NCBI GenBank assembly: GCA_019057385.1
Contig: JAHQJS010000006.1
Coordinates: forward strand, 160,001-224,000
Length of the DNA: 64,000 nucleotides
Source of the DNA: Candidatus Borrarchaeum weybense
GTDB lineage: Archaea > Asgardarchaeota > Sifarchaeia > Borrarchaeales > Borrarchaeaceae
Direction: 5' to 3'
Below the pieces are notes generated by a model. The model made no database searches, had not been told where the DNA came from, and saw nothing but the letters and a program-made list of their open reading frames with translations. Positions within the stretch are counted from its first letter, which is position 1. Each line of letters starts with the position of its first letter. Positions 17,059 to 33,573 of this stretch are shown here, in pieces. Made by a program: the position numbers and the translations under genes.

Positions 17059-17097
17059 TTTCGATCGTTCTTATGATTATCAAATTGTAAGTTCGCT

Positions 17098-19683
17098 TTA
17101 TTGCGTTGCGGTGATAGTAGGACTCTCTAATCCAGATAATCTTCTATAAAAATCGTTTACTATGGATGCAAATTTATGACTGTCAATAGCGGAAAGCGAA
17201 ACTATGTGGAGTTTATCCTTGAGCTCGGGAACAAGTTCTTTTAGCAACATTATTCTTTTTTCTGCTTTCGAGAAACCGTCTATATATTTACAAGATTCTT
17301 TCTGACACCCTATTACTAACACTCCGTCGAAACCTTGTTCGAAGGAATAGAGTACGAAGCGCACGTCGACTCTTCCCGTACAGGGCACCTTTACAATCAA
17401 AACGTTTGGCGTGTACTGTATTTTCTTTAGACCTGCGTCATCGGCTGCTGAGTAACCGCACGACTCGCATGCAAAGGCGATAATTTTTGGCGATTGTGAA
17501 AATTTTGAGTATGTTTCAATTGTTTTCATCATTTTGAGCGTAGTATCAATCTGCATTTCAATTGCTTTCGTCGGACAAACTGCAACGCAAATGCCGCATC
17601 CCTTACAACTAAATTGATCGATAATTACGTCTTCCGAATCAATGGAAATAGCCCTGTAGGGACATGAAGTAACGCACAATCCGCAGAATCCACATTTGTT
17701 AGTATCTATTGTGATGCCATGAATTTCTGGTATCAAATGATCTTTTGACAAGAGACCGATAACCTTTATCGCAACATCATTTGTTGCAGAAATCGTGGTT
17801 TTATAATCCGCTGGTCCTCTTACAGAACCACAGCCAAAAATACCCGAAGCTAATGTAATGTCTGACATAAATCCTTTAGAATCTAAACTGAAGTCTAAGG
17901 CCGATTCTCTCAGTTCTTTTAAGCTTTTGTTAGGGACCATACCAATGTTTAGAATAATCATGTCGGTTTCAAAACGATCTGATTCTGTCGCTATATATTT
18001 CCTAGTCCCCTCTACTTCGATTTTAAGGATTTTTGCCCAATGAAAAATCTTATGTTCTGGCGTAAACCACATAACTGGGTTCTGTGGTATTCTACTGATA
18101 TCATAGAATACATGAAGTTCGCATTCTGGTAACCTCTTTTCGATTTCATCAATGTACTTTTTAGTAAGGGTACAACAATAGGTAGAGCATTTATCGGTTC
18201 CCCCGACACACTGGATTATTGCTATACTCTTTGGTGGGTTTCCATCAGAAAGTTTGATCAGTTTACCCCTAGTAGGACCATCAGAAGCTAGAATCCTTTC
18301 AAACTCAGCTGATGTCAACACATCATTTTGAGGGTTATGTTGATATGCTGACAAATCTTGAAATAAGTCAGAACCAATTGCTAGCACCTTTGCCCCTACA
18401 TTGATTCTCAATTTTTTGGTTTTTTCTTCTAAGTTAATGGCGTTCGTCGGACAAGATTCTTCACACAGTCTACAGTTTCTACAATCTTCAATAGATTCTT
18501 CATCTATGACAGAGGCGTAGGGATATGCATTTGAAAAAGGGATATGGATGAACTTTCTTTGCTTAAGTCCGAATTCATATTCATCTGGTTTTTCATTTGG
18601 ACACACATTGGAGCATCTCTTACAACCGGTACAATCATCCACGTCGACAAATCTAGGATGGATTAGCAATTCAATTTCAAAATTACCAACGTGCCCAGAC
18701 ACTCTTTCGACAGTGGTGTTTGTAAAAATCTTCACATTTTTCTCTTTCACGACTCGGCTAATTAACTCTGTAAGATAACATGACGCACACTCTTTAACAT
18801 CATGAATAGTACTCCATCTTGCAATCTTTCCACCTAACGTTGGGGATTTTTCGATGAGGATAACTTCCAAGCCCGCCCTTGCAAATGATAAAGCTAAGCT
18901 TATACCCGCAAGTCCACCTCCAATCACTGCAACACTTTTTTGAGTTCTTATAATTTCTTTTACTTTGATGTCTTCTTGAAGAATAACCCGATTAACAGCG
19001 GCTTCTATTAAGATCTTTGCTTTTTCAAGAGCGATTTGTGGTTCTGAATCATTGACCCAGACACATTGCTCCCTGATATTGGCAAATTCTGTGTTTTTGA
19101 TTACTTCAACTGGGAGAAGTCCTTCGAAGATGTCCGCAACCACGAATGAATGAGTTCTTGGTGAGCATGAAGCAACCACGATGCGATTAATAAAGAACTG
19201 ATCAACCCATTCCTCTTTTATGCCCTCCACTTCTCTTATATCACACAATCTATCAACAATGCGTACCGAAACAACGTTTTTTAGAGAGGCAACATACCTC
19301 TTTAAGTCAGCGACATCTAATACACAAGATATTTCTTCAGCACATAAACAGATGATGACACCTATGCGTAGTATTCCTACTTTGGTGATGTCATCTTTGT
19401 CGATTTGATCAAATTGCGCTGTCCCAGAAAGGATGTTATCATTTAATTTCATGATTTTTAGAGCCAATTTGCCTTCTTCAGTCAACATATAGTTCTTTCC
19501 GCTCTTTTTAATCAAATCTCCCATCTTTTTCAGATGGAAGTTAAGTTTCCCCGACGTTTCCAACTTCAACAGCGGCAGAAAAGCGGAAAAAGACAAAACC
19601 CCTTCTCTCTCAAGGAATTGGAGTATTTTTTGCCTTGTTGGATGTGAAAGAACTGAATATAATTCCATAATTGTTAACTCCAT
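17098..19683 (-). CDS. Winged-helix (ArsR-like) DNA-binding domain fused to HdrA and MvhD
   Basis: aa 1-80 carry LSHPTRQKIL...SGKLNFHLKKM.DLI....Y.LTEEG (wHTH). HdrA motifs follow (CLC, SCSPRTH, NIREQC, GGGLAG, CASC, ferredoxins, EFER, QCVG..CS..CC). The C-terminus is MvhD (CESCGY.AAD, VPCTGRV, GC....C). Confidence 0.9.
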   Translation of the reverse strand: MELTIMELYSVLSHPTRQKILQFLEREGVLSFSAFLPLLKLETSGKLNFHLKKMGDLIKKSGKNYMLTEEGKLALKIMKLNDNILSGTAQFDQIDKDDITKVGILRIGVIICLCAEEISCVLDVADLKRYVASLKNVVSVRIVDRLCDIREVEGIKEEWVDQFFINRIVVASCSPRTHSFVVADIFEGLLPVEVIKNTEFANIREQCVWVNDSEPQIALEKAKILIEAAVNRVILQEDIKVKEIIRTQKSVAVIGGGLAGISLALSFARAGLEVILIEKSPTLGGKIARWSTIHDVKECASCYLTELISRVVKEKNVKIFTNTTVERVSGHVGNFEIELLIHPRFVDVDDCTGCKRCSNVCPNEKPDEYEFGLKQRKFIHIPFSNAYPYASVIDEESIEDCRNCRLCEESCPTNAINLEEKTKKLRINVGAKVLAIGSDLFQDLSAYQHNPQNDVLTSAEFERILASDGPTRGKLIKLSDGNPPKSIAIIQCVGGTDKCSTYCCTLTKKYIDEIEKRLPECELHVFYDISRIPQNPVMWFTPEHKIFHWAKILKIEVEGTRKYIATESDRFETDMIILNIGMVPNKSLKELRESALDFSLDSKGFMSDITLASGIFGCGSVRGPADYKTTISATNDVAIKVIGLLSKDHLIPEIHGITIDTNKCGFCGLCVTSCPYRAISIDSEDVIIDQFSCKGCGICVAVCPTKAIEMQIDTTLKMMKTIETYSKFSQSPKIIAFACESCGYSAADDAGLKKIQYTPNVLIVKVPCTGRVDVRFVLYSFEQGFDGVLVIGCQKESCKYIDGFSKAEKRIMLLKELVPELKDKLHIVSLSAIDSHKFASIVNDFYRRLSGLESPTITATQ

Positions 19684-19915: not shown

Positions 19916-20034
19916 TTTAGAAACAAAATTTTTGGACAGAATTATATATTCTTGCATATATGGTTGAAATAACACTGAAAAAATTCAATTGGTGAAAATT
20001 ATCAATTAAAATCACTTAAAACTAATATGGAGGA

Positions 20035-20403
20035 ATGTTAATGGCTCAAATTGAAGTTTCTGAAGAAATCAAAAATAAAACTCCTGAAACAAACAATTTC
20101 GCGTGCCCAAACTGGGATACCTGTACTGTCCACCGATGTGATATCTGCGCTTTTGGTAAAAGCTTGACCTATGAATCGGTAAAAACCGCTAATGAACCAA
20201 ATTTAGCATATTCATGTGAAACATTTGGCCAATATGACGTAAAAAATCTAATCTGTAGCAGATGCCCCCTTAAACTGAATTGTATGGAAGAAAAAGAAAA
20301 AAGGCAAGCCTACCTAAACTCTCTGGCAGAAATGGAATCTTTGGTAGGATTAGTTCAGAAGAAAATCGCAGAATCCAAAGTCAATCTGGGAATCAAACTT
20401 TAA
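20035..20403 (+). CDS. Small Cys-rich (8 Cys) putative metal/Fe-S-binding protein
   Basis: GGAGG SD. Motifs CPNWDTC..HRCDIC and CETFGQYD...ICSRCPLKLNC. Confidence 0.75.
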   Translation: MLMAQIEVSEEIKNKTPETNNFACPNWDTCTVHRCDICAFGKSLTYESVKTANEPNLAYSCETFGQYDVKNLICSRCPLKLNCMEEKEKRQAYLNSLAEMESLVGLVQKKIAESKVNLGIKL

Positions 20404-20558
20404 TCGAATGATTCCCCTATTTTTGCCCCTCACTCTTTTTAATCATTATTTTTATGAATCTTTTAAGAAGAAAACTGTATCTTTTTAATCATTAATGCGT
20501 ATTTCGATCGTACATTTCTAAACTGTTGTGAGAGTCTAAAATAAATAAAATATGAAGT

Positions 20559-21884
20559 TTAGGCTTTTTTCTTAGCCTTTAGTTCTTTTACCCTTATCAA
20601 CAATCGTTCTAAGATTTCTTTGTCCGATAAGCATCCTTCTGGCGCTTCTATTACTTTCTTAACGCGAATGGGAACCCCATCCATTCTGTAACCCGTGCCT
20701 TCCGCCTCAATGCCCGCTATCGAGCATGGAAGCAATACATCCGCTAGCTCTGTCGTAGGTGTTTGATGAGGGTCAATTGCTATAAGAGGGATTTCTGCTA
20801 GACGTTTTGCTGCTTTTAATGGAAAATTAGCTACGGCATCCGCCGCAATAACAAGAGCAGCGTCAACCTCTCCTTTTGCCAACACTTCATTTGAGGTAAA
20901 TTCGCCCGGTCCATACCTTGGATAGCCCCTGCTGAAATCAACTGCAAAGGGATATCCTGTTATCCACGTTAGGACCTGACCAATGCCAGTTACATTCCAG
21001 TGTCCTCGCATCGGACAGATCAAAAATTTGGTGAAAGCAGCGAGATCTCGAACAAGACTTAAGGCGATATCAATATTTCTATGCTTTCCGCTACTCATGG
21101 TAAGCCCAAGACCGAAAAAGACAATTCCCATTTTGCTATTCTTTAAGATATTAACGAGCTCAATTATTTCTTCCTTAGAAACTCCACCTACCTCATCAAC
21201 AGCAAGTTCATTGCCTGCTAACACTGTTCTAACAGCACTTATTACTTCGAAATCTGTACCCGGTTTCGGTTGAATGAAGAGATTTGCCAATTTCGCAGTG
21301 TGGGTTTCTCTGGGGTCTACCACTACCATGAGTCTGTCTTTAACACCACGTTCCGTAAAGAATCCCCTTCGATAAACGGAATATCTACTCATATGACGGG
21401 GATGAGCATGAACTGGATTGCAGCCCCAATAGATGATTAAGTCTGCTCGATTCATGATTTCTCCTAAGGTTGCTCCTGATAATCCAATATCCTGCACTCC
21501 TAAAATAGACGGACCGTGACATACAGAAGCGGTCTGATCTATACAACCACCTACTTCTTCGGCTAATGCTACTCCTATGCTTTGGGCCTCGCATTCTGTT
21601 GAAGCCCATCCATAAAGCAACGGCCATTCTGCATTCACTAAAAACTGTGCTGCCTTTTCTATGGCTTCATCTAATTCAACTTCTTTGAGCTTCCCATTTT
21701 CTCTTATCATCGGAGCAGTGATTCTGTGAGATACGTTGTTGGCTGACATGAATTTTGCTGTACCGAGGACACAGGCATTTGCAGTTTCCACAATCTTACC
21801 ATTTTCCACATAAATTTCAATATCGTCGCATAAACATCCACAAAAAGGACAAATGACATTTTTAACAACAGTTTGTTTGCTCAT
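20559..21884 (-). CDS. fwdB: Formylmethanofuran dehydrogenase subunit B (Cys form)
   Basis: CPFCGCLCDD, CHGPS, NRADL..YWGCNP.HAHPRH.SRY, MRGH.NV, YRMDGVP. Confidence 0.96.
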   Translation of the reverse strand: MSKQTVVKNVICPFCGCLCDDIEIYVENGKIVETANACVLGTAKFMSANNVSHRITAPMIRENGKLKEVELDEAIEKAAQFLVNAEWPLLYGWASTECEAQSIGVALAEEVGGCIDQTASVCHGPSILGVQDIGLSGATLGEIMNRADLIIYWGCNPVHAHPRHMSRYSVYRRGFFTERGVKDRLMVVVDPRETHTAKLANLFIQPKPGTDFEVISAVRTVLAGNELAVDEVGGVSKEEIIELVNILKNSKMGIVFFGLGLTMSSGKHRNIDIALSLVRDLAAFTKFLICPMRGHWNVTGIGQVLTWITGYPFAVDFSRGYPRYGPGEFTSNEVLAKGEVDAALVIAADAVANFPLKAAKRLAEIPLIAIDPHQTPTTELADVLLPCSIAGIEAEGTGYRMDGVPIRVKKVIEAPEGCLSDKEILERLLIRVKELKAKKKA

Positions 21885-21900
21885 CCTTTAGTTCACTCCC

Positions 21901-22311
21901 TCACTTTTTGAGCGGCATTATTTTTTTCATTAGTGCAGTAGGGGCTGGCACCCTTTCATTTGGAGCAGGTTCAATAATAGCTTCGATTCCTTTATAGGAT
22001 GGCATTCCTGTGCTATCAGTCTCTGGATTGACCACAGCATTTGCGTAAAGCCCCATTGGAATGAATACAATTCCTCTGTGTGGGGCCTGAGTTGATTCAA
22101 TTCCGCTTACTAAGACTTCACCATAATCAGTTTTAACTTTCACAGTATCGCCATCGTAAATTCCTAGTTCCTTCATGTCATCCGGGTCGATATCACATAC
22201 AGCAGTGCTCAGGACGTATCCTCGTGTGAGTTTTTCACCTTCTAACGCTACTCCTTGCTCAATCGATCGACCGGTAAGAAGGGTGACCTTTTTTGATTTT
22301 TTCATTCCCAT
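21901..22311 (-). CDS. fwdD: Formylmethanofuran dehydrogenase subunit D
   Basis: TGRSI.QG, FIPMG..AN, TGMPSYKG. Adjacent to fwdB. Confidence 0.93.
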   Translation of the reverse strand: MGMKKSKKVTLLTGRSIEQGVALEGEKLTRGYVLSTAVCDIDPDDMKELGIYDGDTVKVKTDYGEVLVSGIESTQAPHRGIVFIPMGLYANAVVNPETDSTGMPSYKGIEAIIEPAPNERVPAPTALMKKIMPLKK

Positions 22312-22409
22312 CTCTTTTCACCATGTTCCTACTGGAAATTTAAGAGGGTATCTTGAAAACTAATATGGATGAATAGTAGGATCTAGTCAACAAATTTTCA
22401 AGTAATGGT

Positions 22410-22449
22410 CTTTCAAATATGTACAATTTGAAAGTTGTCGAAACTTTCA
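22410..22449. promoter_or_regulatory. Overlapping inverted repeats upstream of fwdD
   Basis: CTTTCAAAT-N7-ATTTGAAAG (22410-22434) and TGAAAGTT-N5-AACTTTCA (22429-22449). Confidence 0.45.
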
Positions 22450-22914
22450 CACTCATCTTTCCATTTAAATTTTGCTCATTTTAATGTTTTGAATAGTACA
22501 TTTAGAATATATAAAAAGAATCAATCAACTTCTAAGATGAGAGGCTTATTGTTATTTTCCATGAACAGAAATAGATTGCTTTAGAGCTAAAGTAGAATTT
22601 TTGCCAAAAACAGCACATATAAAGAACCTGTGCTTCTAATACTATATGATGAAAAGTGCAAAGGAGAACAGAGGAACAGATACTAGCTAGACGATATACA
22701 ACCACTTTACGCGTTTCAATGATTTAGTGACTAAAAATACAACTTTTGTTGACCTTGTAATCTTTTTGAAGCCTCATCCTATTCTAATTAAGCGACTGGG
22801 TGTAAACTTCATAAAAAGGTAAATGCTTAAATATCCAAATACTGCTTAAAGGACTGTTGATCGCCTTAATTTTGGGTGATTATCGGCAAACTCCTATGAG
22901 CTTGAGGGACGTTA

Positions 22915-23157
22915 ATGCCTTACGAAATTGTTATCAATGAAAGATTGTGTCATGGATGTGGAGATTGTTACACTGCATGTCCAAAGACTCAATTGTGTTT
23001 AATAAATGAAGATCATGAAAACCTAATTTTTGTTGTTAAAAAAGGGAAGGCTCATGTTGTAAACTCAAAGTTATGTGACGGATGCGGAATGTGTATTGAA
23101 GCTTGCCCTGTTCAAGCAATAAAAATAATCATTTCTGCAAAAGAGGTGCCTCGCTAA
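22915..23157 (+). CDS. fwdG: 2[4Fe-4S] ferredoxin, FwdG-like
   Basis: CHGCGDCYTACP and CDGCGMCIEACP, in fwd context. Confidence 0.8.
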   Translation: MPYEIVINERLCHGCGDCYTACPKTQLCLINEDHENLIFVVKKGKAHVVNSKLCDGCGMCIEACPVQAIKIIISAKEVPR

Positions 23158-23915
23158 TGTTACCGTTACATAGAAAAATTGTTGAACCTGATACGATCAC
23201 AGCAGAATTTAAACTCTTGACGATTGATCTGAAACTTAATTATGACAGAGCACATTGTACAGGTTGTGGTACGTGCATCTTAGTTTGTCCAAAAAATGCT
23301 ATTGAAAGAGGACCTGTAGGCGCTTCCATTAAAGGGGATACCGACACACCTGCAATACTGATCGATGAAAATAAGTGCGTTTACTGTGGCACTTGCGCTT
23401 ATATGTGTCCTTTCTTTGCCTTGAAATTGGAGATAAATGGCGAGCCTAAAAATTTGCTTGCTGAAAACAAAGCGGTTCCGCCATTACCCACAGACTTTGT
23501 CGACCTCGAAAGGAGAAAAGGAATGAAGGCACGAAAGTTATTCAATGGTAAGATAAAACTCTATCCAGAAAATTGCCCTGGAGGTTGTTCGACTTGCGCA
23601 AACATTTGCCCCACTGGAGCACTTTACGTACCACATCCTAAAGAAGGTGGAGAACGAGTTGATAAAATTGCGCTTGACGAATCGAAATGTATCTATTGTG
23701 GAGCCTGTGTTAACGCATGCCCAACAAAATGTACAATAATGAGGGATGAAGATCAGTGTCTTTTTGATACCGAATGCCCTATCGTATGTGTAAACGAATG
23801 TCCTATTGAATTAGAACGTGAAGTCATTTACGATGAAGAAGGGGAATATACAGAATTTTGGCTTAATATAGTAGAAAAATTAAGATCTCCCCTTAAATTC
23901 TACGAACGTGAGTAA
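23157..23915 (+). CDS. fwdF: Polyferredoxin, FwdF-like
   Basis: Four or more CxxCxxCxxxCP motifs, including CPGGCSTC. ATG 23157 overlaps the upstream TAA. Confidence 0.8.
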   Translation: MLPLHRKIVEPDTITAEFKLLTIDLKLNYDRAHCTGCGTCILVCPKNAIERGPVGASIKGDTDTPAILIDENKCVYCGTCAYMCPFFALKLEINGEPKNLLAENKAVPPLPTDFVDLERRKGMKARKLFNGKIKLYPENCPGGCSTCANICPTGALYVPHPKEGGERVDKIALDESKCIYCGACVNACPTKCTIMRDEDQCLFDTECPIVCVNECPIELEREVIYDEEGEYTEFWLNIVEKLRSPLKFYERE

Positions 23916-23976
23916 TGGAATCAAAGAAGAATATTTCGTCACTTTGGAGGTGGTGATAAGAATTTCAGAAGAAGAA

Positions 23977-25950
23977 ATGCGCATTGGAGTTTTCGTTTGT
24001 CGTTGAGGTTTCCAAATTGCAGCTTACGTTGATGTTCCAGCATTAACTGAGTACGCAACTACACTTCCGAACGTTGTACTTGCAGAACAAAATCTCTCTC
24101 TTTGCACAACAGCAGGAGCAGACCTTATAAAGGATAAAATCGTGGTTTACAATTTGGACCGCATCGTTGTCGCGTCCTGTACGCCAAAAACACATGAACC
24201 CGTTTTCAGATCTATACTCAGTGATTTGGGGATGAGTCCTAGTTTCCTAGAGTTCGTAAACATCAGAGAACATGTTGCTTCGGTACATATGGAGACCCCA
24301 AAGAAAGCCTTAGAAAAAGCAAAAGAATTATTGCGGGCTGGCGTAGCCCGTGCGGCGGAGCTTGAAGACGTTCCTAGAAGGGTTATCAGTGTAAATCCGA
24401 CTGCCTTAGTGATCGGTGGCGGGATCGGTGGATTAACTGCAGCATTGAATTTAGGAGATGAAGGAATACAGGTTTATCTCGTCGAAAAGGCACCAAGCGT
24501 TGGTGGACACATGGCAATGCTCGATCGCACGTATCCCACTGATGATTGCAGTATCTGAATCTTGGGTCCAGTAATGCTGGAAGTCGATAGACATCCTAAC
24601 ATTGAAGTTATGAGTTATTCTGAAGTGAAAAGCGTTTCAGGCGTGATCGGTGATTTCGCAGTTACAGTTGAACATAGACCAAGATACGTCAATGAGATAA
24701 GGTGTAATGGATGTGGAGTTTGTATGGATGTTTGTCCGGTCTATGCACCTAATGAGTTCGACTGTAGTCTTGGACCAAGAAAAGCGGTTTATAAGCCATT
24801 TGCACAGGCAGTTCCTAATATTGCTACAATCGACATGGATTATTGTATTCGATGTAAACTCTGTGAACGCGTATGCGAATTAGAAGCAATCGATTTTAAT
24901 CAGCACCTCAAGGAAACAGAATTACATGTAGGGACAATTATCGTTGCTACCGGTTTCGATGAATTCAAACCCTATGGTCTATACGGCTATGGTGAATATG
25001 AGAACGTTCTAACGCAAAATGAATTCGAGCGAATATTGGCGCCGAATGGACCTTCTTCAGGCCACTTACGGAGAATTTCTGACGATAAAGAGCCAAAGCG
25101 AATTGCAATAATACAATGTGTTGGTTCTAGAGACCGAACTAAGAATCTTCACTGTTCAGGATACTGTTGCATGGTTGGGATTAAGAACGCAAAACTTGTC
25201 AAACAGCATTATCCTGATGCTGAAATCACAGTATGTTACATGGACATAAGAGCGTCTGGAAAAGATCTTGAAGAATACTACACGCGTTCTAGAAAACATA
25301 AAATAAAATATCTTCGAGGAAAAGTATCAGACGTATCAGAAGATCCAGAAACTAAAAACCTTATTGTACGCGTTGAAGACACGTTAGCAAATCAGATTAG
25401 AACAATCGAAGCGGACCTAGTTATTCTATCAGTAGCCATGGTTGCAGGCGAGGGAACAGAAAAGATAGCCGAAATTCTAAAACTTGAAAGAAGTTCTGAC
25501 GGCTTTATCAAGGAGTTCCATAACCGACTAAATCCTATTGACACCAAGATCCCCGGCATTTATATTGCGGGGGCAGCACAAGGTCCAAGAGCTATAGGTG
25601 ATACAGTCGCCTCGGCAAAGGGTGCAGCGGCAGCAGCATCGTCGCCAATGATAACGCGAAAGTACGAGATGGAACTTATCAAGGCTCTTGTTGACGAAGA
25701 AAGATGTTCAGGTTGTACTCTTTGTGTCAAAACCTGTCCATACGGTGCTATAACTATGGAGGAAGGTGTTGCAAAGGTGGATGAAGTTCTTTGCCGTGGT
25801 TGTGGTACTTGTACTTCGGTATGTCTATCGAACGCGATTGCGCTACGCTATTATAGAGATGAACAAATGGAAGCCTATATTGACGCTTTATTGGCACCAG
25901 AGGAAACCGTGACCGAGAAAGCCGTAGCGGAGGAAAAAGTAGGAGGTTAG
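23977..25950 (+). CDS. hdrA: Heterodisulfide reductase subunit A, selenoprotein with two UGA-Sec (24004-24006, 24556-24558)
   Basis: A single frame reads MRIGVFVCR-TGA-GFQIA...DDCSI-TGA-ILGP and joins ORFs 24142..24558 and 24562..25950. The paralog at 17098 has Cys at both sites (CLC, CASC). The start could be slightly upstream (GTG 23953). Confidence 0.93.
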
Positions 25951-25954
25951 AACA

Positions 25955-26410
25955 ATGGGTCAGAGTAAGAAACAGAAGGTTGATGCAATTGAGTTCGTAC
26001 CTAAAATCGTCACTTTTGCATGTTGGAAGTGAGGATACGAAGCCGCAGACATGGCTGGTGTTACAAGAACCCAGTATCCTGCCAACGTGTTGCCTATAAG
26101 GGTCCCGTGTGCTGGTCGAGTATCTCCTGACCTCATTATACGAGCGTTGAGACGAGCCGATGCTGTGATAGTTGTCGGTTGATACGAAGGCGAATGCGAC
26201 TTTGAGATTGGGAACAAGATTGCAAAAATGCAGATTGACTATCTCAAAGAAATGCTTAAGACCATCGGATTAGACGAACGTCGTATACAAATGAAATGGT
26301 GTTCCGCCGCTGAAGGCGAAAAATTCGCTCTGATGGCGAATGAAGTGACAAACGAAATCTTAGAATTAGGACCTAATCCACTAAAAAACAGACCTGCTGC
26401 AAAAGAATGA
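25955..26410 (+). CDS. mvhD: Hydrogenase [2Fe-2S] delta subunit MvhD/VhuD, selenoprotein with two UGA-Sec (26030-26032, 26180-26182)
   Basis: AGGAGG SD. Frame reads FACWK-TGA-GYEAADMAG...VPCAGRV...VVG-TGA-YEGEC...WCSAAEG. The fused paralog has CESC and GCQKESC at these positions. Confidence 0.93.
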
Positions 26411-26487
26411 AACTCATGGGAAAACTTAGTTCATGAGTTAACGCCCCTGCGAGGGGTGCGGCAGATATACCTTATCTTTATCATTCT
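26404..26487 (+). promoter_or_regulatory. Candidate SECIS-type RNA structure 3' of mvhD
   Basis: AUGA, then a 10-bp helix AACUCAUGGG/UUCAUGAGUU with an AAAA-starting loop. A second GC hairpin CGCCCCU/AGGGGUG. AGAAUGA(26404)/UCAUUCU(26481) can close the structure. Confidence 0.5.
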
Positions 26488-26506
26488 CTTAGGAGATTAT
26501 ATACAA

Positions 26507-27712
26507 ATGGAAATCGGAGAATTCTTCGCTGTAAGGCCAAAAGAAGGTCTTGAAGAGCTTGAATCCCACGAGTTGAAGTATGGAAACGGTGCAATTCAAG
26601 CTATAATGAATTTCATGCTAAAAAACCAATTAGTTGATGTCTTCTTGTCATTTACAGAACGTAAAGATCATTTTTCACTTAAACCGGTTATTGTAGAAGA
26701 GCCCAAAGAAATATTTGATATTTCTCTTTCACAATTTATTGCGTATAATTTACCAAACATCGATTCTGTTTCAAAATATGTTGCCTCTAAACTCAACGGG
26801 GCAAAAGATAACGACAAAAAAATAGGGGTAATTGCCAGACCCTGTGATATTAGAGCGTTCATAGAACTGGCAAAACGTGATCAAATTTCACTTGATAATC
26901 TTTTTGTGATTGGGCTCGAATGTATTGGTCGAATAGACCCAAGAGAACTCAAAAAAGTCCTTAAAAAAGCCGAGATTGACCCTGAAAGTGTGGTTAACGA
27001 AATAATAAATAACGGAGTCTTGACTCTGGAACTTAATACTGGAACAACTCAAGCCTTCAAGTTGGGCGAAGAAATCGATGTCAGGAGTTATTGTAATCAG
27101 TGCCCAAAGAAGGTTCCGAAAGAAAATGTTGCAGATTTAACCTTCTGGATTGATCATCCTCTTGAAGGAAATGAAGAGATTTTTGAAGTTCGTTCTACGC
27201 AGGGAAAGGAAGTGTTGGAGAAAGCAGCAACTGAAGTAATCGAGGTAGAAAAGCTTTCGGATGAGAATATTCAACAACTCAAGAATTACATTGCCTCCTT
27301 AGAACAAACTGCGCTTGAGCTGCAAGAGTCCGAATTTGCCAAGTTAGACGAAATGTCTGATGAAGAGCGGTTTGATTATATAATTTCAAACTTCGAGCAA
27401 TGCACGAGTTGTATGATGTGTATCCGTGCATGCCCGATCTGCTATTGTAAAGATTGTAATGTTGTACGAAGAAGAAAGGAATTAGATCCTATTATGATTA
27501 ATTTAACCCGCCTATCTCACGTAGGAGATACGTGCATCGCATGCGGAAAATGTAGCGAGGTCTGCCCGAAGTCGATTCCGCTATGTCTCATTTCAAAGAA
27601 ACTAGTGGAAGATTTAAAAGAACTCTGGCCTGGTCACGAGCCTGGTCACACTATAGAGGAAATTCCGCCAAGATCTTGGAAAGGCATGAAAGCAGCGAGT
27701 GGCGCTGAATAA
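26507..27712 (+). CDS. FrhB/FdhB-family F420-binding beta subunit with a C-terminal 2[4Fe-4S] domain
   Basis: ARPCDIRAFIEL.KR.QI...IGLEC.G, C..C, CTSCMMC..ACP.CYC..C, CIACGKC..VCP. ATG 26507 follows AGGAGA. Confidence 0.85.
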   Translation: MEIGEFFAVRPKEGLEELESHELKYGNGAIQAIMNFMLKNQLVDVFLSFTERKDHFSLKPVIVEEPKEIFDISLSQFIAYNLPNIDSVSKYVASKLNGAKDNDKKIGVIARPCDIRAFIELAKRDQISLDNLFVIGLECIGRIDPRELKKVLKKAEIDPESVVNEIINNGVLTLELNTGTTQAFKLGEEIDVRSYCNQCPKKVPKENVADLTFWIDHPLEGNEEIFEVRSTQGKEVLEKAATEVIEVEKLSDENIQQLKNYIASLEQTALELQESEFAKLDEMSDEERFDYIISNFEQCTSCMMCIRACPICYCKDCNVVRRRKELDPIMINLTRLSHVGDTCIACGKCSEVCPKSIPLCLISKKLVEDLKELWPGHEPGHTIEEIPPRSWKGMKAASGAE

Positions 27713-27762
27713 TTAAATAATTCTCAAACTGTCAATAAACCATCAAAATCAGTTATGAGGGT

Positions 27763-28929
27763 ATGAAATTGCAAAAAAGCATGATGACTGCTGAAGATAT
27801 AGTAGATTATTGTTATCAATGTGGCAAATGCTCTGGCAAATGCCCACTCGGACATATTATGGAATCGCCTAGAGTTATAATTCAGAAAGTACTTTCAGGA
27901 GACACCGAAGAGGTGATAAAGTCTAAAGATGTTTGGCGATGCCTCACGTGCAATGAATGCACAGTTCCAGAGTGTCCAATGGCTATCAATTTTGCTGAGT
28001 TTATTCGGACAATACGTACCAATGCGGTACGTGAGGGCTACCAAAACTTCAGAGAAACACATCACGAGGTTTTCAAAACAGCAACTAGATTAATGGCAAA
28101 CCCTAATATTAAGCCGAACAAATTATTGAACTGGCCAGAAGATGCTAAAATAAGTAAGGAAGGAGAAACTGCCCTCTTTGTTGGTTGTTTAGAGTTTTTT
28201 GATAACGTCTCTTATTTTGCCGATATGGGAGCTAAGTACGGTGAGATTTCAAAAGATGCTGTGAGAATCCTTAATGAATTAAATATTGTCCCTGTAGTCG
28301 TTGAGGACGAGAAATGTTGTGGACATGACGTTCTATGGTCTGGCGATGAAGAAACTTTTCTGAAATTGGCAGAGTACAATACAACTGCCTTTAAGAAAGC
28401 TAATGTGAAGCGTATTATAACTACTTGCGCAGAATGCTACCGCACATTAGCAGTAGATTATCCGAATTACGTGCCAGATTTTGATTTTGAGGTTATCCAT
28501 CTCTCCGAATTTCTTGCAAAGAAAATTGATGAAGGAAAATTAAAATTCCCCAGACATTTTAACAGAGTGGTAACGTATCACGATCCATGTCGACTAGGAC
28601 GACACATGAGTGTTTACGATGCTCCTAGAAAAGTGATGGAGCGTATCCCAGGTCTTACCTTAAAAGAAATGAAGAAGAATAAAGAGAAAGCGCTCTGTTG
28701 TGGTGTCAGTTCTTGGCTTAATTGTGATGATTATGCAAAAGCAATAAGGATAGACAGATTGACTGATGCACAAAACACAGGAGCACAAATATTAGTGAAT
28801 ACGTGCCCCAAGTGTGAGATGCATTTCAATTGTCTGAGATGTGAAAAAGGTGAGGACAAACCTTTAGATTTTACAAAATTAGAAGTAATGGACTTCGTGA
28901 CGCTTGTCGCAAAGGCTTTAGGTATTTAA
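27763..28929 (+). CDS. hdrD: HdrD-type protein (2[4Fe-4S] plus two CCG domains)
   Basis: CYQCGKCSGKCP, W.CLTC..C, FVGC, CCG, CAEC, YHDPC.LGRH, CCG, CPKC. Confidence 0.85.
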   Translation: MKLQKSMMTAEDIVDYCYQCGKCSGKCPLGHIMESPRVIIQKVLSGDTEEVIKSKDVWRCLTCNECTVPECPMAINFAEFIRTIRTNAVREGYQNFRETHHEVFKTATRLMANPNIKPNKLLNWPEDAKISKEGETALFVGCLEFFDNVSYFADMGAKYGEISKDAVRILNELNIVPVVVEDEKCCGHDVLWSGDEETFLKLAEYNTTAFKKANVKRIITTCAECYRTLAVDYPNYVPDFDFEVIHLSEFLAKKIDEGKLKFPRHFNRVVTYHDPCRLGRHMSVYDAPRKVMERIPGLTLKEMKKNKEKALCCGVSSWLNCDDYAKAIRIDRLTDAQNTGAQILVNTCPKCEMHFNCLRCEKGEDKPLDFTKLEVMDFVTLVAKALGI

Positions 28930-28944
28930 CTGGGAGGTTCATAC

Positions 28945-30498
28945 ATGGCTAGTCCCAACGAGTCAAACAATGTCGTCTTGGTTATTGGTGGTGGAATTGC
29001 AGGTATCCAGTCTTCATTAGACCTTGCGAAATTGGGTTTTAATATATACCTTGTTGAAAAACGCCCTAGTATTGGAGGCATAATGGCGCAACTCGACAAA
29101 TTATATCCTTCAATGGAAAACAGTCTGTATCACTTAACTCCGAAAATGGGTGATGTACTAGAAAACCCAAATATCGCATTACTCACCTATTCTGAAGTGA
29201 CAAATGTTGATGGATCCGCAGGCGACTTTAAAGTGACTATTCTGCAGCATCCACGCTTTGTCGATGGTACAAAATGCGATGCATGCGATACATGTACGAC
29301 GGTTTGCCCAATGGTGACCGTGGACACAGATTTCGATATGGGGCTGGGAAAAAGAAAAGCAGCGTACACACCATTTACACAGGCAGTACCAAAAACATAC
29401 GTGATCGATAAAGATATCTGCTTATATTTCAACAACAAAATGTGCCAGAGTTGTCAAAAATTATGCCCAAAAGGCGCTATTAACTTTGATCAGGAGCCAG
29501 TTGAGAGGCAAATCGATGTAAATGCGATAATTGTCGCAACTGGGGTACTACGATATAACATATCAAATCTATCAAAGTATGGCTATGATTTTGAAAATGT
29601 TTTGACAGGATTGGAATTTGAAAGAATTCTAACATCGAATGGACCTACTGAGGGTCAAATAATTAGAATTTCTGACAGGCAAATACCAGAAACCATTGCA
29701 TTCATTCCCTTAGACTCATCAAAGTCACAAAAAGCGGTTGCAATAAAACAAAGTATTGAATCCAAAGAAAGAAATCCCAACATAGAGTGCGTTGTTCTCA
29801 TGGATGGAACTTTAGAAGATGAGAAGTTTGCCACATTTATTCAAAGGTCAATGGCAGACGGTGTCAGTTATATTGATGGGATTATTTCCGCAGTAGAAGA
29901 AGATCCAGATCGCAAAGATTTGATTCTTCAATACAAAGACAAAAATTCAGAGGAAAATAAAGAAATAAAAGTCAATATGGCAATCCTCTTTGACCAATTA
30001 CTTCCTTCAAAGGAAGAGATGACCCAGCTGGCATCAGTTTTGGGGTTAAAACTAACCAAGAAAGGGTTCTTTAAAAAGAAATCAAAATCAGAAACTGTTG
30101 AAACAAAAAAGGCTGGAGTCTTTGCTATAGGTGCTGGGCTGCAACCAGAAGATGTTTCGTTGGTATTAACTGATGTTAATACGGTAGTATCAAAAATCGC
30201 CTCACAATTTGCACCACCAGAACTATGGACGCCTAAAGCATTCGTTGAAACAGAATATTGCATTGGTTGCGGATATTGTAGAGAGGCCTGTCCCTTTTAT
30301 GCTATTAGCCTGCAGGTAGTAGAACTAGAGTTACCTGTGGCAGAGGTGGCGGGTATACCTCTCAAAACAAGAAAGGCACAGGTACATGAAAGTCTCTGTA
30401 GAGGTTGCGGAATCTGCGTTTCAGAATGTCCTGTTCAAGCCATCAGATATGGTGACCCACAAACATTGGAGCAAGTACTTTCGGCACCTGTTGAATAG
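28945..30498 (+). CDS. HdrA-like flavoprotein, truncated and partly Cys-degenerate
   Basis: GGGIAG, EK.PSIGG.MAQLDK, inserted and C-terminal ferredoxins, EFER. Lacks the N-terminal domain, CxxC and CVGSR..CS..CC. Confidence 0.85.
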   Translation: MASPNESNNVVLVIGGGIAGIQSSLDLAKLGFNIYLVEKRPSIGGIMAQLDKLYPSMENSLYHLTPKMGDVLENPNIALLTYSEVTNVDGSAGDFKVTILQHPRFVDGTKCDACDTCTTVCPMVTVDTDFDMGLGKRKAAYTPFTQAVPKTYVIDKDICLYFNNKMCQSCQKLCPKGAINFDQEPVERQIDVNAIIVATGVLRYNISNLSKYGYDFENVLTGLEFERILTSNGPTEGQIIRISDRQIPETIAFIPLDSSKSQKAVAIKQSIESKERNPNIECVVLMDGTLEDEKFATFIQRSMADGVSYIDGIISAVEEDPDRKDLILQYKDKNSEENKEIKVNMAILFDQLLPSKEEMTQLASVLGLKLTKKGFFKKKSKSETVETKKAGVFAIGAGLQPEDVSLVLTDVNTVVSKIASQFAPPELWTPKAFVETEYCIGCGYCREACPFYAISLQVVELELPVAEVAGIPLKTRKAQVHESLCRGCGICVSECPVQAIRYGDPQTLEQVLSAPVE

Positions 30499-30646
30499 AT
30501 TCCAATCTAAACTTATCCTCTCTGGTGCCTTCATAAAAAGACGTGATGCAAAAACAGCATGTTAAATAATGTTCAAAAACTGACACGATGGAAAGATTAA
30601 AAGAGATCGTTTCAGCTCATATATTTGAAATTCAGCTCATCTAAAT

Positions 30647-32389
30647 ATGGTGGTAACATTGACAAGGAATCTGTTAATCAAAAATGGAACCGTTTTTGAC
30701 CCAACTAACGAAATTGACGGCGAGAAAATAGATATTGCTATCAAAGACGGGAAAATTGTCGAGAAAGTACCCAAAGATGCTAAAATTATAGATGCTTCAA
30801 ATATGATCGTGATGCCTGGTGGAGTCGACCTTCATGCGCACATTGCAGGGAGCAAAGTAAACAGTGGTCGGCTCTTCAGACCTGAAGATCATCGTTATGA
30901 GGTTTACGCACGTACAGCTACGACTCGCGCTGGCGTGGGACATTCAGTTCCCTCGACATTTACGGCAGGATATCGCTATGTAAATATGGGTTATACTACG
31001 GTAATGGAACCAGCAGTACCTCCACTGAAAGCCAGACATACCCACGAGGAACTAAGAGATACACCCATAATTGATAAGGCGTGCTTCCCACTCTTTGGAA
31101 ACAACTGGTTCGTATTAGAATGCATTGCAAACGACAACCTTGACATGCTTGCCGCATTTATTGCATGGATGCTCAAAGCAACAAAAGGATATGCCATCAA
31201 GCTCGTCAATCCGGGCGGATCAGAAGCCTGGAGTTGGGGTAGAAACGTGGACTCTTTAGATGATCCCGTTCCTAGTTTTAATGTTACTCCACGCCAGATC
31301 ATTAGATACTTGGCACAAGCAAACGAAAAACTAGGGCTTCCTCATCCAATCCATCTCCATACGGTAAATCTCGGACAACCTGGTAACGTTGAAATTACTA
31401 TTGAAACGATGAAAGCGCTAAAAGACATTAAGGTAGCAGGAAATGGGAATGGAGGGCGTAAAGAAGTTCTTCATATGACACATCTTCAATTTCATAGCTA
31501 CGGTGGAACTGGTTGGAGAGATTTCGGTTCTGGTGCCGCTGAAATAGCGGATTATTTGAATAAGAACGACCATGTAAGCTTCGATCTCGGGCAAATAATG
31601 TTCGGAGACACGACTACAATGACTGCGGATGGTCCAATGGAGTATAGCCTATATAAACTGACACATAACAAATGGATGAACGGAGATGTCGAATTAGAAT
31701 GTGGCTCAGGAATAGTGCCTTTTACATATTCTAGAAAAAACCCAGTGAACTCCATTCAGTGGACAATTGGAATGGAATATGCATTATTAATTGAAGATCC
31801 TTGGCGGGTAGTTCTAACAACTGACCATCCTAACGGAGGTCCTTTTACTACATATCCTGGCTTAATTTCATGGCTTATGAGTAAAAAAGCACGTGACGAC
31901 ATATTGAAAGGTGCACATAAAAAAGCAACCAGCGCAAGCACATTAAGTGACATCGACAGAGAACTGACCTTCTATGAAATTGCAATCATGACGCGAGCAG
32001 CCGCTGCAAGATTATTAGGCTTAAAGAATAAAGGACATCTTGGAATTGGAGCAGATGCTGATGTCGCTATCTACAATTTCGACCCCGTAGCTAATCCCTC
32101 TGAAAATCATGTTGCCATACAAAAGGCATTCTCTAATACAGCATACACAATCAAGGACGGCGAAGTAGTTGCAAAAGATGGAAACATTTTAGCCTCGCCA
32201 GAAGGAAGAACTTTTTGGCTAGATATTAAGATCCCAGCAGAACTAGAAAATGCATTGTTACCGGTTTTGGAAGAGAAGTTTCGTAACTATTACACCATTC
32301 AACTCAGCAATTACCCCGTAGAACTAGACTATCTACCTCGCTCTACACCGCTCCAAATGGATGTCACTCAAAATTTTAGTTCTAACTAA
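30647..32389 (+). CDS. fwdA: Formylmethanofuran dehydrogenase subunit A
   Basis: D.HAHIAG.KVN.GR..RPEDH, K.VNPGG, TTMTADGP, TTDHPNGGPF. Confidence 0.96.
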   Translation: MVVTLTRNLLIKNGTVFDPTNEIDGEKIDIAIKDGKIVEKVPKDAKIIDASNMIVMPGGVDLHAHIAGSKVNSGRLFRPEDHRYEVYARTATTRAGVGHSVPSTFTAGYRYVNMGYTTVMEPAVPPLKARHTHEELRDTPIIDKACFPLFGNNWFVLECIANDNLDMLAAFIAWMLKATKGYAIKLVNPGGSEAWSWGRNVDSLDDPVPSFNVTPRQIIRYLAQANEKLGLPHPIHLHTVNLGQPGNVEITIETMKALKDIKVAGNGNGGRKEVLHMTHLQFHSYGGTGWRDFGSGAAEIADYLNKNDHVSFDLGQIMFGDTTTMTADGPMEYSLYKLTHNKWMNGDVELECGSGIVPFTYSRKNPVNSIQWTIGMEYALLIEDPWRVVLTTDHPNGGPFTTYPGLISWLMSKKARDDILKGAHKKATSASTLSDIDRELTFYEIAIMTRAAAARLLGLKNKGHLGIGADADVAIYNFDPVANPSENHVAIQKAFSNTAYTIKDGEVVAKDGNILASPEGRTFWLDIKIPAELENALLPVLEEKFRNYYTIQLSNYPVELDYLPRSTPLQMDVTQNFSSN

Positions 32390-32607
32390 ACTTACATCTT
32401 TTTTTTCAACTTTAAAATGATTTTATAGCGCAGGTTTTTTTCCCCGTGAAATCTTTCAAAGATAAGCCTAATGTCTCTTATCTAGTGTATGCTCAGTTTT
32501 CGAAAATAGTCAATATCTTCAAAATCTGAATCATTCACGTTTCTGAGGAAATGGTTTTTAAGGATCGATAATGATGATTCATACAACGAGTCTTGGTGAT
32601 GCTATAA

Positions 32608-33573
32608 ATGCCTTGGATACCTCTTTCAACAGTGAAACCCTTTGAAATAGATAGAGCTACACGCCAACGTCTCTATTTTGGACTTGGTGAATTTCCACCG
32701 TTGAACCTTGTCGATCCTAAAGAGGTTGAAAAGTATCTGCGCTGGCATCCAAAACTGGTAAATAACGAGGAAATCATCTCAGTAACGGAAGTCTATGGCT
32801 ATTATCCTGACCTCTATGAGCATTGGTCTCGGAATAAAGTCTACCTTATAGACTTTTTAACTGAGGGTATTCCCATTTCCTCTATTGAGGGTGGCGGTTT
32901 AGATCTCGTAAAAGAAAATGTAGTTGGAAAAGTTGTAGACCCAGATGCTGGCATTCGAGAGCGGTCTGTGCAAACTAAACTCTACCAGAGTGGGTATCCA
33001 GTGCCTGAACCAAGAGGCTTATCGCTTCCTATGCAAGCAGAAGATGAAGAAATCTTAAAACACGCGAAACCTAAGTCTGTGCTTTGGATGGACTATATAA
33101 ATTCTAAATACACCTTTGAGAAGTATATGCTTCGACTATGCCTCGGAGAGGAAAGGGTAAACAGTTCATTCCAAGATATAAGTGACCTTATTATAGCAAT
33201 GTGGGATCTTGGTATTGCCCATGGTGATCTAAAAGGAGAGCATATTCTTAGAACAAAGAAGGATAACTGGGTAATTATTGACCTTGGAGAAGCGAAGGAT
33301 GATGAATATACAGCCCGTGTTGCCGACTTATATGTCCTCGTCACTGATACAACTGTATTTATCGAGAGACACTTACGATCAAGAAATTTGGATGAAGAAG
33401 CATTTAATCATGCCTTAACTGATTTGGGCGATGCACTAACTTTATTCTTAGAAAATATCAGTACTTCTGTACGACAAAACTTGATGACGGATGTTTGGCG
33501 ACGAATTCGAAAAGAAGCAACAATATTAGGTGATGCTTTTCGGAATATCGTTGTATCTGCCTTTCCGACGTAA
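32608..33573 (+). CDS. Atypical protein kinase (RIO/Bud32/Kdo-like fold)
   Basis: VVGK, RE...LY..G.PVP.P, MDYI, HGDLKGEHIL, IIDLG. Confidence 0.75.
   Translation: MPWIPLSTVKPFEIDRATRQRLYFGLGEFPPLNLVDPKEVEKYLRWHPKLVNNEEIISVTEVYGYYPDLYEHWSRNKVYLIDFLTEGIPISSIEGGGLDLVKENVVGKVVDPDAGIRERSVQTKLYQSGYPVPEPRGLSLPMQAEDEEILKHAKPKSVLWMDYINSKYTFEKYMLRLCLGEERVNSSFQDISDLIIAMWDLGIAHGDLKGEHILRTKKDNWVIIDLGEAKDDEYTARVADLYVLVTDTTVFIERHLRSRNLDEEAFNHALTDLGDALTLFLENISTSVRQNLMTDVWRRIRKEATILGDAFRNIVVSAFPT

Follow-up and report, generated by a model that had tools for sequence, protein, structure and literature searches.

Gene content of the cluster

We analyzed a stretch of 64,000 nucleotides (nt) from the Asgard archaeon Candidatus Borrarchaeum weybense (assembly GCA_019057385.1, contig JAHQJS010000006.1, positions 160,001 to 224,000), hereafter called the window, in which genes for formylmethanofuran dehydrogenase (Fwd) lie among genes of the heterodisulfide reductase (Hdr) type. 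Open reading frame (ORF) listing, translation with TGA read as selenocysteine (Sec), and Pfam/NCBIfam scans gave ten genes at positions 20559-32389 of the window: fwdB and fwdD on the minus strand, divergent from a plus-strand run fwdG-fwdF-hdrA-mvhD-fdhB-like-hdrD-hdrA'-fwdA. An earlier reading of the bare DNA, made without database searches (the sequence-only reading), had proposed this gene set with the same order and strands, and all ten genes were found where it had placed them.

The Fwd part of the cluster is well defined. The fwdB gene (20559..21884, minus strand) encodes the catalytic W/Mo-pterin subunit of 441 amino acids (aa), scoring 615 bits with TIGR03129 against a cut-off of 328, and its active-site motifs SVCHGP and PMRGHWNVTG are intact. 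Next to it, fwdD (21901..22311, minus strand, 136 aa) has the Pfam Molydop_binding domain and retains the TGRS and GMPSYKG motifs; its score with the FwdD model NF042908, 129 bits, lies under the cut-off of 175. On the plus strand, the first gene (22915..23157) encodes an 80-aa FwdG-like ferredoxin for two [4Fe-4S] clusters, with two CX2CX2CX3CP motifs, and the last one, fwdA (30647..32389), the 580-aa amidohydrolase subunit (TIGR03121, 854 bits against a cut-off of 393). Together with a FwdC encoded elsewhere, FwdA, FwdB, FwdD and the FwdG-like protein make a complete catalytic set FwdABCD(G) in the genome, and judged by its motifs, the Fwd of the cluster looks catalytically competent.

The sequence-only reading had also remarked on the lack of fdhA, hdrB/C and fwdC. 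This holds for the window, and all of them are present elsewhere in the genome. Inside the co-oriented plus-strand run, neither a molybdopterin nor a hydrogenase donor gene was found by ORF listing and Pfam.

Selenocysteine codons and a SECIS-like element

Standard ORF calling (table 11) breaks hdrA and misses mvhD, because each contains two in-frame TGA codons. In hdrA (23977..25950, plus strand, a 657-aa frame with TGA read as U), these are codons 10 (24004-24006) and 194 (24556-24558), at the conserved Cys positions of VCRUG and DDCSIU. In mvhD (25955..26410, plus strand, 151 aa; Pfam FlpD 142 bits), they are codons 26 (26030-26032) and 76 (26180-26182), at the conserved Cys positions of FACWKUG and VVGUYEGEC. 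The MvhD protein matched the VhuD model with an E-value of 2.5e-38 and 131 bits, below the exception cut-off of 215. The internal TGA codons of both genes are read here as Sec. Recoding to Trp or Gly was ruled out, every internal TGA being aligned with a conserved Cys.

A predicted three-way-junction RNA resembling a selenocysteine insertion sequence (SECIS; 26394..26464, plus strand, -32.8 kcal/mol, z -3.2) overlaps the mvhD stop, and the third TGA of mvhD, the stop codon itself (26408-26410), sits in the AUGA core of this fold. A scan of 20000-33000 with Rfam returned nothing relevant and no match for the element. We also considered that all three mvhD TGA codons might be Sec, giving a 585-aa MvhD-FdhB fusion. 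This was rejected on the position of the third TGA in the AUGA core, and on the 32 codons that follow it, which have no homologue, FdhB homologues beginning at the next Met.

Since hdrA is separated from mvhD by only 4 nt and thus has no 3' untranslated region of its own, it would have to share the SECIS-like element located past mvhD. Such sharing would place hdrA and mvhD on one mRNA, and it is the sole argument for this that the sequence offers. Adjacent multi-Sec hdrA and two-Sec mvhD genes with a single SECIS-like element after mvhD match a pattern of Asgard archaea.

HdrA, the HdrD-like protein and HdrA'

The cluster HdrA has the five domains of a bifurcating HdrA. It carries the flavin adenine dinucleotide (FAD) site with the adjacent Cys/Sec pair and the HA4 motif, and neither the N-terminal shuttle-cluster domain nor either of the two ferredoxin domains is missing. 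Its motifs read VCRUG, DDCSIU and HCSGYCC, with Sec in place of Cys at two sites. A fusion of the HdrA2 type (HdrA::MvhD, as in Methanosarcina) was rejected: hdrA and mvhD are two genes parted by a TAG and 4 nt, and the score of HdrA with NF040770, 790 bits, is below the cut-off of 1100.

Further downstream, the gene named hdrD (27763..28929, plus strand) encodes a 388-aa HdrD-like fusion of HdrC and HdrB, supported by two Pfam CCG domains (109 bits) and by matches to HdrC and HdrB in the PDB. It carries CX2CX2CX3CP and CX2CX2CX4CP [4Fe-4S] motifs as well as two complete CCG motifs, C142/CC185-186/C222xxC225 and C276/CC312-313/C348xxC351, in agreement with the single-chain HdrD-type CCG protein that had been claimed.

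The following gene, hdrA' (28945..30498, plus strand, 517 aa), is by motif comparison an N-terminally truncated HdrA paralogue. It retains the FAD motif and both ferredoxin domains, and lacks the N-terminal domain, the Cys/Sec pair (ENSLYHL stands where HdrA has DCSIU) and the CSxxCC (HA4) motif. In the scheme of PMC13580544, these losses would leave HdrA' with no entry point for MvhD, no shuttle cluster HA3 and no HdrC-directed HA4 cluster. The missing domain and motifs rule it out as a canonical second bifurcating HdrA. In a quick HdrA tree, HdrA' proteins formed a separate, long-branched third clade.

The FdhB-like protein

Between mvhD and hdrD, a 401-aa protein (26507..27712, plus strand) consists of an FdhB/ElpB-like module and a C-terminal domain for two [4Fe-4S] clusters. 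In a PDB sequence search it aligned end to end with Methanospirillum hungatei FdhB (7bkb_E, E 3.7e-46) and with ElpB (8rvu_E, E 8e-39). Its AlphaFold2 model was of high confidence (predicted local distance difference test, pLDDT, 93; predicted template modelling score, pTM, 0.93), and Foldseek gave the same two proteins: 7bkb_E with a template modelling score (TM) of 0.84 and, second best, 8rvu_E with TM 0.79/0.83. All 23 Foldseek matches at E ≤0.001 were flavin-binding modules of the FrhB family, and 20 of these are F420-dependent, the exceptions being HCAR and P. furiosus SHI. In a search of 1.8 billion proteins, only 27 representative clusters matched it below 1e-30.

Its cluster cysteines are all kept (C113, C138, C196 and C199), and it scored 67 bits with FrhB_C and 20.5 bits with FrhB_N, the latter below the cut-off of 22. 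The FAD loops of FrhB are residues 23-30 ('QDGG'), 71-77 and 131-138 (PMC3930138). In the cluster protein, two loops are retained, the pyrophosphate loop reading GNGA and the Cys-bearing isoalloxazine loop GLECIG, and the stretch ADLACGxWG is changed to VADLTFWI. Assignment to the FwdI type of F420-reducing Fwd was discarded, given that FwdF is present and that the FdhB-like protein carries its ferredoxin domain at the C-terminus, not at the N-terminus.

The host genome also has a canonical mvhD-fdhA-fdhB set (C6:922898-926499) with molybdopterin and Fe4S4 domains, the FdhB of which matches FrhB_N and FrhB_C strongly. The genome thus holds both a classical FdhB and the diverged, fwd-linked FdhB-like protein.

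FwdF and its predicted contact with HdrA

The second plus-strand gene (23157..23915) encodes a 252-aa polyferredoxin of the FwdF/FmdF type. Its best PDB sequence match was M. hungatei FmdF (7bkb_K, E 2.4e-44), and its top 12 Foldseek matches were all FmdF or FwdF (TM 0.71), so that the FwdF identity proposed earlier is borne out by both sequence and fold. The protein holds four conserved clusters and a genus-specific Cys-rich insert. This insert (residues 192-215, window positions 23730-23800) has five extra Cys and a pLDDT below 50, is absent from Atabeyarchaeia and Freyarchaeia homologues, and might form an additional cluster or serve in docking.

We modelled the Sec-free part of HdrA (residues 195-657) together with FwdF, using our own alignments and three controls. 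The interface score ipSAE was 0.79, 0.79 and 0.78, versus 0.00 for the best control; the mark applied to this score is reached by 58 of 80 solved complexes and by 2 of 110 mismatched pairs, counts that are only approximate for models built on our own alignments. The runs had at least 98% of contacts in common, and partner pLDDT was at least 73. On the HdrA side, contacts involved residues 58-104 of the fragment (about 252-298 of the full protein), which correspond to the inserted ferredoxin domain; on the FwdF side, they involved the N-terminus and the loop of the second cluster. The inserted ferredoxin domain of HdrA is where FmdF binds in M. hungatei and MvhB in M. marburgensis (PMC12350162, PMC13580544). 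The absence of a predicted FwdF-HdrA interface had been named in advance as an outcome that would speak against a supercomplex; the model instead predicts one, at the site seen in solved complexes. As similar complexes have already been solved, the predictor may partly be reproducing them, and the result indicates likeness to them rather than binding.

Distribution across Asgard archaea

We then looked for related arrangements in 400 Asgard genomes. Families are given the labels f2, f4, f5, f13 and f21 where needed, f4 being the Atabeyarchaeia. The ten-gene order was kept in four other genomes of the genus (5 of 5 with this one), and therefore is not a chance arrangement. FwdA was found in 274 of the 400 genomes and an FdhB-like gene in 212, and among the matches listed the two were adjacent only in the host genus (5/5) and in the Atabeyarchaeia (3/3). 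There, the order is fwdB-fwdD<>fwdG-fwdF-hdrA-mvhD-fdhB-fwdA, one of these genomes being that of PMC11291895.

Operons without hdr genes were found in Freyarchaeia (G117, G121) and family f13, with the order fwdB-fwdD<>fwdG-fwdF-fwdA-fwdC-mch, which indicates that FwdG and FwdF are Fwd subunits. In other Asgard families, fwdC-mch directly follows fwdA. Comparison of these orders points to an insertion of the hdr genes between fwdF and fwdA and to a relocation of fwdC-mch. Conversely, the hdrA-mvhD-fdhB trio stands alone in most Loki-type families.

Other combinations of the two modules exist: hdrA..mvhD-hdrA-hdrA'<>fwdA-fwdD-fwdB in family f2, mvhD-hdrA-hdrA'-hdrD<>fwdA-fwdC-mch in f5, fwdA-..-hdrA-mvhD-fwdG-fwdF-fwdC in f21, and hdrA-mvhD-fwdD-fwdB-fwdA in a metagenome-assembled genome (MAG) of Hadarchaeota. 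The layout with hdr genes inside or beside fwd operons, for which a synteny survey had been called for, thus recurs across lineages. In the quick HdrA tree, the window HdrA grouped with those of Atabeyarchaeia and of the trios (Shimodaira-Hasegawa-like approximate likelihood-ratio test, SH-aLRT, 91), and other fwd-linked HdrAs fell in a different clade, mixed with unlinked paralogues. Overall, fwd-linked HdrAs spanned at least three HdrA clades (SH-aLRT 85-100). The linkage of hdrA-mvhD to fwd thus arose more than once, and among the indirect arguments that the two modules are functionally tied, this repeated origin is the strongest.

Transcription signals

Gaps between successive plus-strand genes are -1, 61, 4, 96 (this one holding the SECIS-like element), 50, 15 and 148 nt. 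A GGAGG or GAGG resembling a Shine-Dalgarno (SD) sequence precedes each of the first seven genes. From this layout we infer one fwdG-to-hdrA' transcript. Upstream of fwdA, a TATA-like box CATATATT (30618..30625, plus strand) lies 22-29 nt before the ATG and is a possible internal promoter. The block 30588-30646 around it was strongly conserved in four genomes and invariant near the box, and in the present genome it contains an ATG-led frame of 18 codons, which is out of frame in two relatives.

Between the divergent fwdD and fwdG-like genes lie 603 nt of intergenic sequence (22312..22914), in which a TTAAATAT box is found about 70 nt upstream of the ATG of the fwdG-like gene. When three genomes of the genus are aligned, this region shows a mean column identity of 88%, approximately as conserved as the flanking genes, and it probably holds regulatory sites or long leaders. 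A scan for sigma-70 promoters and terminators gave counts at or below the shuffle level, with a model that does not apply to archaeal promoters.

Host genome and pathway context

The host genome (4.18 Mb in 8 contigs) is scored as 100% complete with 7% contamination, and its genus includes the MAGs Ca. Borrarchaeum yapensis and Ca. Sifarchaeum marinoarchaea. Neither McrA nor ComA was found in this genome scored as complete. It follows that coenzyme M (CoM) and coenzyme B (CoB) are presumably missing from the host, that CoM-S-S-CoB is not the acceptor, and that the usual Hdr substrate of methanogens is not to be expected, in line with the sequence-only reading, which had left the thiol pair unnamed. 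Approximately ten hdrB paralogues are found elsewhere in the genome.

Ftr, Mch, Mtd and MfnB are present, together with a Mer-like protein below cut-off, and cdhC, cdhD and cdhE lie in the window, 5 kb downstream of the cluster. This context indicates that Fwd serves a real pathway here, the tetrahydromethanopterin Wood-Ljungdahl route. The fwdC-mch pair lies beside a TnpB-like gene, with ftr 2.4 kb away (C6:3630-8255), and its split from fwdA may be a transposon-associated rearrangement.

A paralogous set is located on contig C8 (195488-204205), with fwdD-fwdA, a 310-aa polyferredoxin, a Cys-only hdrA-mvhD fusion (792 aa), and an FeS-domain ferredoxin gene next to fwdB. It was initially taken for a simple second Fwd. 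This was revised, since its FwdB reads PMIGHYN, with Ile at the position of the catalytic Arg, and the motifs of its FwdD are eroded. The set is flanked by a homologue of 'methanogenesis marker 8' (TIGR03275, 294 bits), in a genome without Mcr.

A proposed Hdr-Fwd unit and its alternatives

We hold with moderate confidence that the cluster represents an Asgard counterpart of the (Fdh/Elp)-Hdr-Fmd machinery of methanogens, encoding a working HdrA-MvhD-FdhB/FwdF-Fwd unit with a third arm of the CCG type. The linkage of fwd and hdr genes, the model of the FwdF-HdrA interface, the intact Fwd motifs, the FdhB fold, the CCG motifs and the pathway context all favour such a unit. In this scheme, the hdrA(Sec)-mvhD(Sec)-fdhB trio, which is widespread in Asgard archaea, would have been inserted between fwdF and fwdA, with Fwd keeping its own FwdG and a shortened FwdF. 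The FdhB-like subunit would exchange hydride with a two-electron carrier of mid potential, for which F420 completed from scavenged Fo is the most likely candidate. The low-potential electron would pass from the inserted ferredoxin domain of HdrA through FwdF/FwdG to FwdB, where CO2 and formyl-methanofuran are interconverted, and the high-potential electron from the HA4 cluster of HdrA to a CCG-type reductase, here the fused HdrD-like protein, and in Atabeyarchaeia one that would be encoded outside the cluster. Its disulfide acceptor would be other than that of CoM and CoB. The unit could run forward, fixing CO2 into the Wood-Ljungdahl pathway, or backward, by confurcation in one-carbon (C1) oxidation.

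Several observations weigh against this interpretation. First, FwdF has only two ferredoxin modules, and its 122 bits with the FwdF model NF042909 are far under the cut-off of 375. Second, hdrD and hdrA', both listed in the gene run by the sequence-only reading, are absent from the Atabeyarchaeia cluster, so that conservation of the unit does not extend to its third arm. Third, fwdC is present in a single copy 155 kb upstream of the cluster (C6:4671-5444). Fourth, fwdA is preceded by the 148-nt gap with the conserved TATA-like CATATATT and no SD, so that it may be a separate transcript, possibly an extra leaderless one.

The remaining points concern F420. The adenine FAD loop of the FdhB-like protein (71-77; GSxxC in FdhB) is replaced by LSQFIAYN with a 5-residue insert, FrhB_N stays under its cut-off where the canonical FdhB paralogue of the genome reaches 60 bits, and the Fo synthase proteins CofG and CofH were not found in the genome (best matches 49 and 39 bits). 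The genome search did return CofD (345 bits, with three weaker paralogues), CofE (269 bits) and the F420-dependent Mtd (309 bits); the organism may scavenge Fo, or use an Fo synthase that escapes recognition. The LSQ(F/Y) loop is common to Asgard homologues of only 30-40% identity, which indicates a maintained variant and not decay, and its divergence leaves the cofactor and substrate identity of the FdhB-like protein uncertain. Of the F420 module that had been claimed, the full-length FdhB/ElpB homologue therefore stands, by sequence and fold, but its use of F420 is uncertain. Of the observations put forward as refuting the claim, the lack of an F420/FAD site was not borne out at the level of the fold, which is kept along with two FAD loops, although one loop has diverged. 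Overall, the sequence-only reading is reasonable and supported in part.

On this evidence, we rank a unit with a CCG-type third arm above three other explanations. One is a wire without bifurcation, in which Fwd, FwdF, HdrA, MvhD and FdhB would couple formyl-methanofuran oxidation to F420 reduction (or the reverse with reduced ferredoxin), HdrD and HdrA' being a separate enzyme that shares the operon by chance; this resembles FwdI or the Korarchaeia trio. The Atabeyarchaeia cluster without a CCG protein fits such a wire, as does the trio standing alone in most Asgard families. A ferredoxin:F420 oxidoreductase role has been proposed for the hdrA-mvhD-frhB trio of Korarchaeia (PMC10667645), a direct coupling of Fwd to F420 was shown in ethanotrophs (PMC11493965), and Borrarchaeota are predicted to run the pathway oxidatively (bioRxiv 10.1101/2020.10.19.343400). 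However, HdrA keeps all the bifurcating features (shuttle-cluster domain, Cys/Sec pair, HA4 and ferredoxin domains), for which a plain wire has no need, the ten or so hdrB paralogues could give a third arm in trans, and FwdI-type enzymes replace FwdF, which is kept here. We consider the wire unlikely.

A second explanation, which we judge no more probable, is co-regulation only, with separate Fwd and Hdr enzymes trading electrons via free ferredoxin. It would account for the unlinked fwdC and for a possible promoter of its own for fwdA; methanogen supercomplexes are labile (PMC12350162), and gene neighbourhood alone is weak evidence of binding. Against it, fwd and hdrA-mvhD have become linked repeatedly and independently in several lineages, always with a polyferredoxin, and a high-confidence FwdF-HdrA interface is predicted at the known site.

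Least probable of all is that the architecture is the same but the FdhB-like subunit does not use F420, working instead with a different flavin or deazaflavin or serving only as an Fe-S adaptor for a partner encoded elsewhere, such as the MvhAG-type hydrogenase at 14958-17058: the diverged FAD loop, the sub-threshold FrhB_N, the missing Fo synthase, the LSQ(F/Y) loop as a variant selected across the Asgard clade, and the hydrogenase and fused winged helix-turn-helix-HdrA-MvhD gene kept beside fwdB in the genus would fit, but the fold matches to flavin-binding and mostly F420-dependent modules, the GNGA and Cys-bearing loops and the presence of CofD, CofE and Mtd speak against it.

We put forward a more specific version of the preferred Hdr-Fwd unit only tentatively: in a non-methanogenic Asgard archaeon without Mcr and ComA, a selenium-dependent Hdr-Fwd supercomplex, bifurcating or confurcating, would combine a stand-alone FdhB-type module that uses F420 made from scavenged Fo or a different flavin carrier, a fused HdrD, a disulfide yet to be named and a second flavin step on HdrA', and would push CO2/formyl-methanofuran chemistry in either direction.

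Comparison with known systems

To our knowledge, all Hdr-Fwd/Fmd supercomplexes known so far, with structures dating from 2021-2026, come from methanogens. They tie the reduction of CoM-S-S-CoB, the last step of methanogenesis, to CO2 reduction, its first step.

Among the closest published systems is Elp-Hdr-Fmd of Methanothermobacter marburgensis (ElpABC-HdrABC-MvhB-FwdABCDFG; PDB 8RVU): an F420H2-driven Elp-Hdr co-purifying with Fwd and polyferredoxin was purified, and the Elp-Hdr core was solved (PMC12350162). As proposed for Borrarchaeum, an FdhB-type subunit feeds HdrA via an MvhD-type subunit, and a polyferredoxin on the inserted ferredoxin domain of HdrA links to Fwd. Elp-Hdr-Fmd has the scaffold ElpA, a truncated FdhA, and MvhB, whereas the Borrarchaeum cluster lacks both and its FwdF is predicted to sit on HdrA directly. 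Conversely, the cluster has a fused HdrC+HdrB chain, the additional truncated HdrA', and HdrA and MvhD as selenoproteins, in a host without Mcr and ComA. The FdhB-like protein and FwdF both find their best matches, in sequence as in fold, in Fdh-Hdr-Fmd of Methanospirillum hungatei (PDB 7BKB; chains 7bkb_E and 7bkb_K, respectively), whose FmdF sits directly on HdrA, as predicted for the cluster. This complex differs by its polyferredoxin (388 aa, versus 252 aa here), by its disulfide arm and by its methanogenic host; the cluster being without FdhA, formate is not the donor, unlike in Fdh-Hdr-Fmd. The FmdF of class II methanogens has been reported to derive from Asgard or Bathyarchaeia (PMC13580544).

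The hdrABC-mvhD-fdhB-'Molybdop' clusters of anaerobic methanotrophic archaea (ANME) and Methanosarcinales (PMC12054007, PMC9012536) share HdrA, MvhD and FdhB as well as, in some cases, an added HdrD and a second HdrA, and F420 has been proposed as their mid-potential couple. The extension of hdrABC-mvhD-fdhB clusters by a second HdrA and HdrD was described along with the idea of a two-step bifurcation, and supercomplexes in Methanocella were predicted from the clustering of hdr with fwd genes (PMC12054007). The clusters of ANME and Methanosarcinales lie outside fwd operons, their molybdopterin subunit is dead and their HdrB and HdrC are separate, whereas the HdrA' described here has neither N-terminal domain nor HA4 motif. 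With the hdrA-mvhD-frhB trio of Korarchaeia and most Asgard families (PMC10667645), the cluster shares 51-56% identity for hdrA, approximately 47-62% for mvhD and 32-40% for fdhB. In the host genus and Atabeyarchaeia this trio is inserted into the fwd operon, and two features lost in several trio copies, the GxG loop and the fourth Cys of the cluster site, are present in the FdhB-like protein described here. Finally, in the F420-reducing, FwdI-containing Fwd of Ca. Ethanoperedens (PDB 8RJA; PMC11493965), a genetic link likewise joins an FrhB-family module to Fwd, and the C1 pathway served is not methanogenic. There, FwdI takes the place of FwdF and bears its ferredoxin domain at the N-terminus, whereas the cluster keeps FwdF, with HdrA and MvhD intervening; the fold match to 8rja_E was TM 0.53.

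With Elp-Hdr-Fmd already purified (PMC12350162), and clusters of HdrA, FdhB, HdrD and a second HdrA already described (PMC12054007), the Borrarchaeum cluster is a lineage-specific variant and not a new system. Among the papers searched, none describes an Hdr module inside an Asgard fwd operon, and the Atabeyarchaeia paper (PMC11291895) is silent on it. What sets the cluster apart is an hdrA-mvhD-fdhB module within the motif-intact Fwd operon of a host without Mcr and ComA.

Hdr-Fwd machines thus probably exist in altered form outside methanogenesis. If the proteins do act together, flavin-based bifurcation at CO2 entry would be a general trait of the archaeal Wood-Ljungdahl pathway rather than an invention of methanogens, and the cluster would provide a defined, expressible protein set for finding an Hdr disulfide substrate outside methanogens. 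It also bears on the models of Asgard energy metabolism used in eukaryogenesis scenarios.

Other genes of the window

Beyond fwdB, a neighbouring divergent unit includes the MvhAG-type [NiFe] hydrogenase (14958-17058). With an 861-aa fusion of a winged helix-turn-helix domain (DUF7347), HdrA and MvhD, it occupies 14958-19683, and two other genomes of the genus have at least the fusion beside fwdB. Hydrogen (H2) may therefore feed into this island as an alternative donor or act on it as a regulatory signal. Farther from the cluster and unrelated to it, two ORFs are possible eukaryote-signature proteins: one of 499 aa belonging to the tubulin/FtsZ family (1675-3174), and one of 968 aa with a TRAP-beta-like domain (7537-10443).

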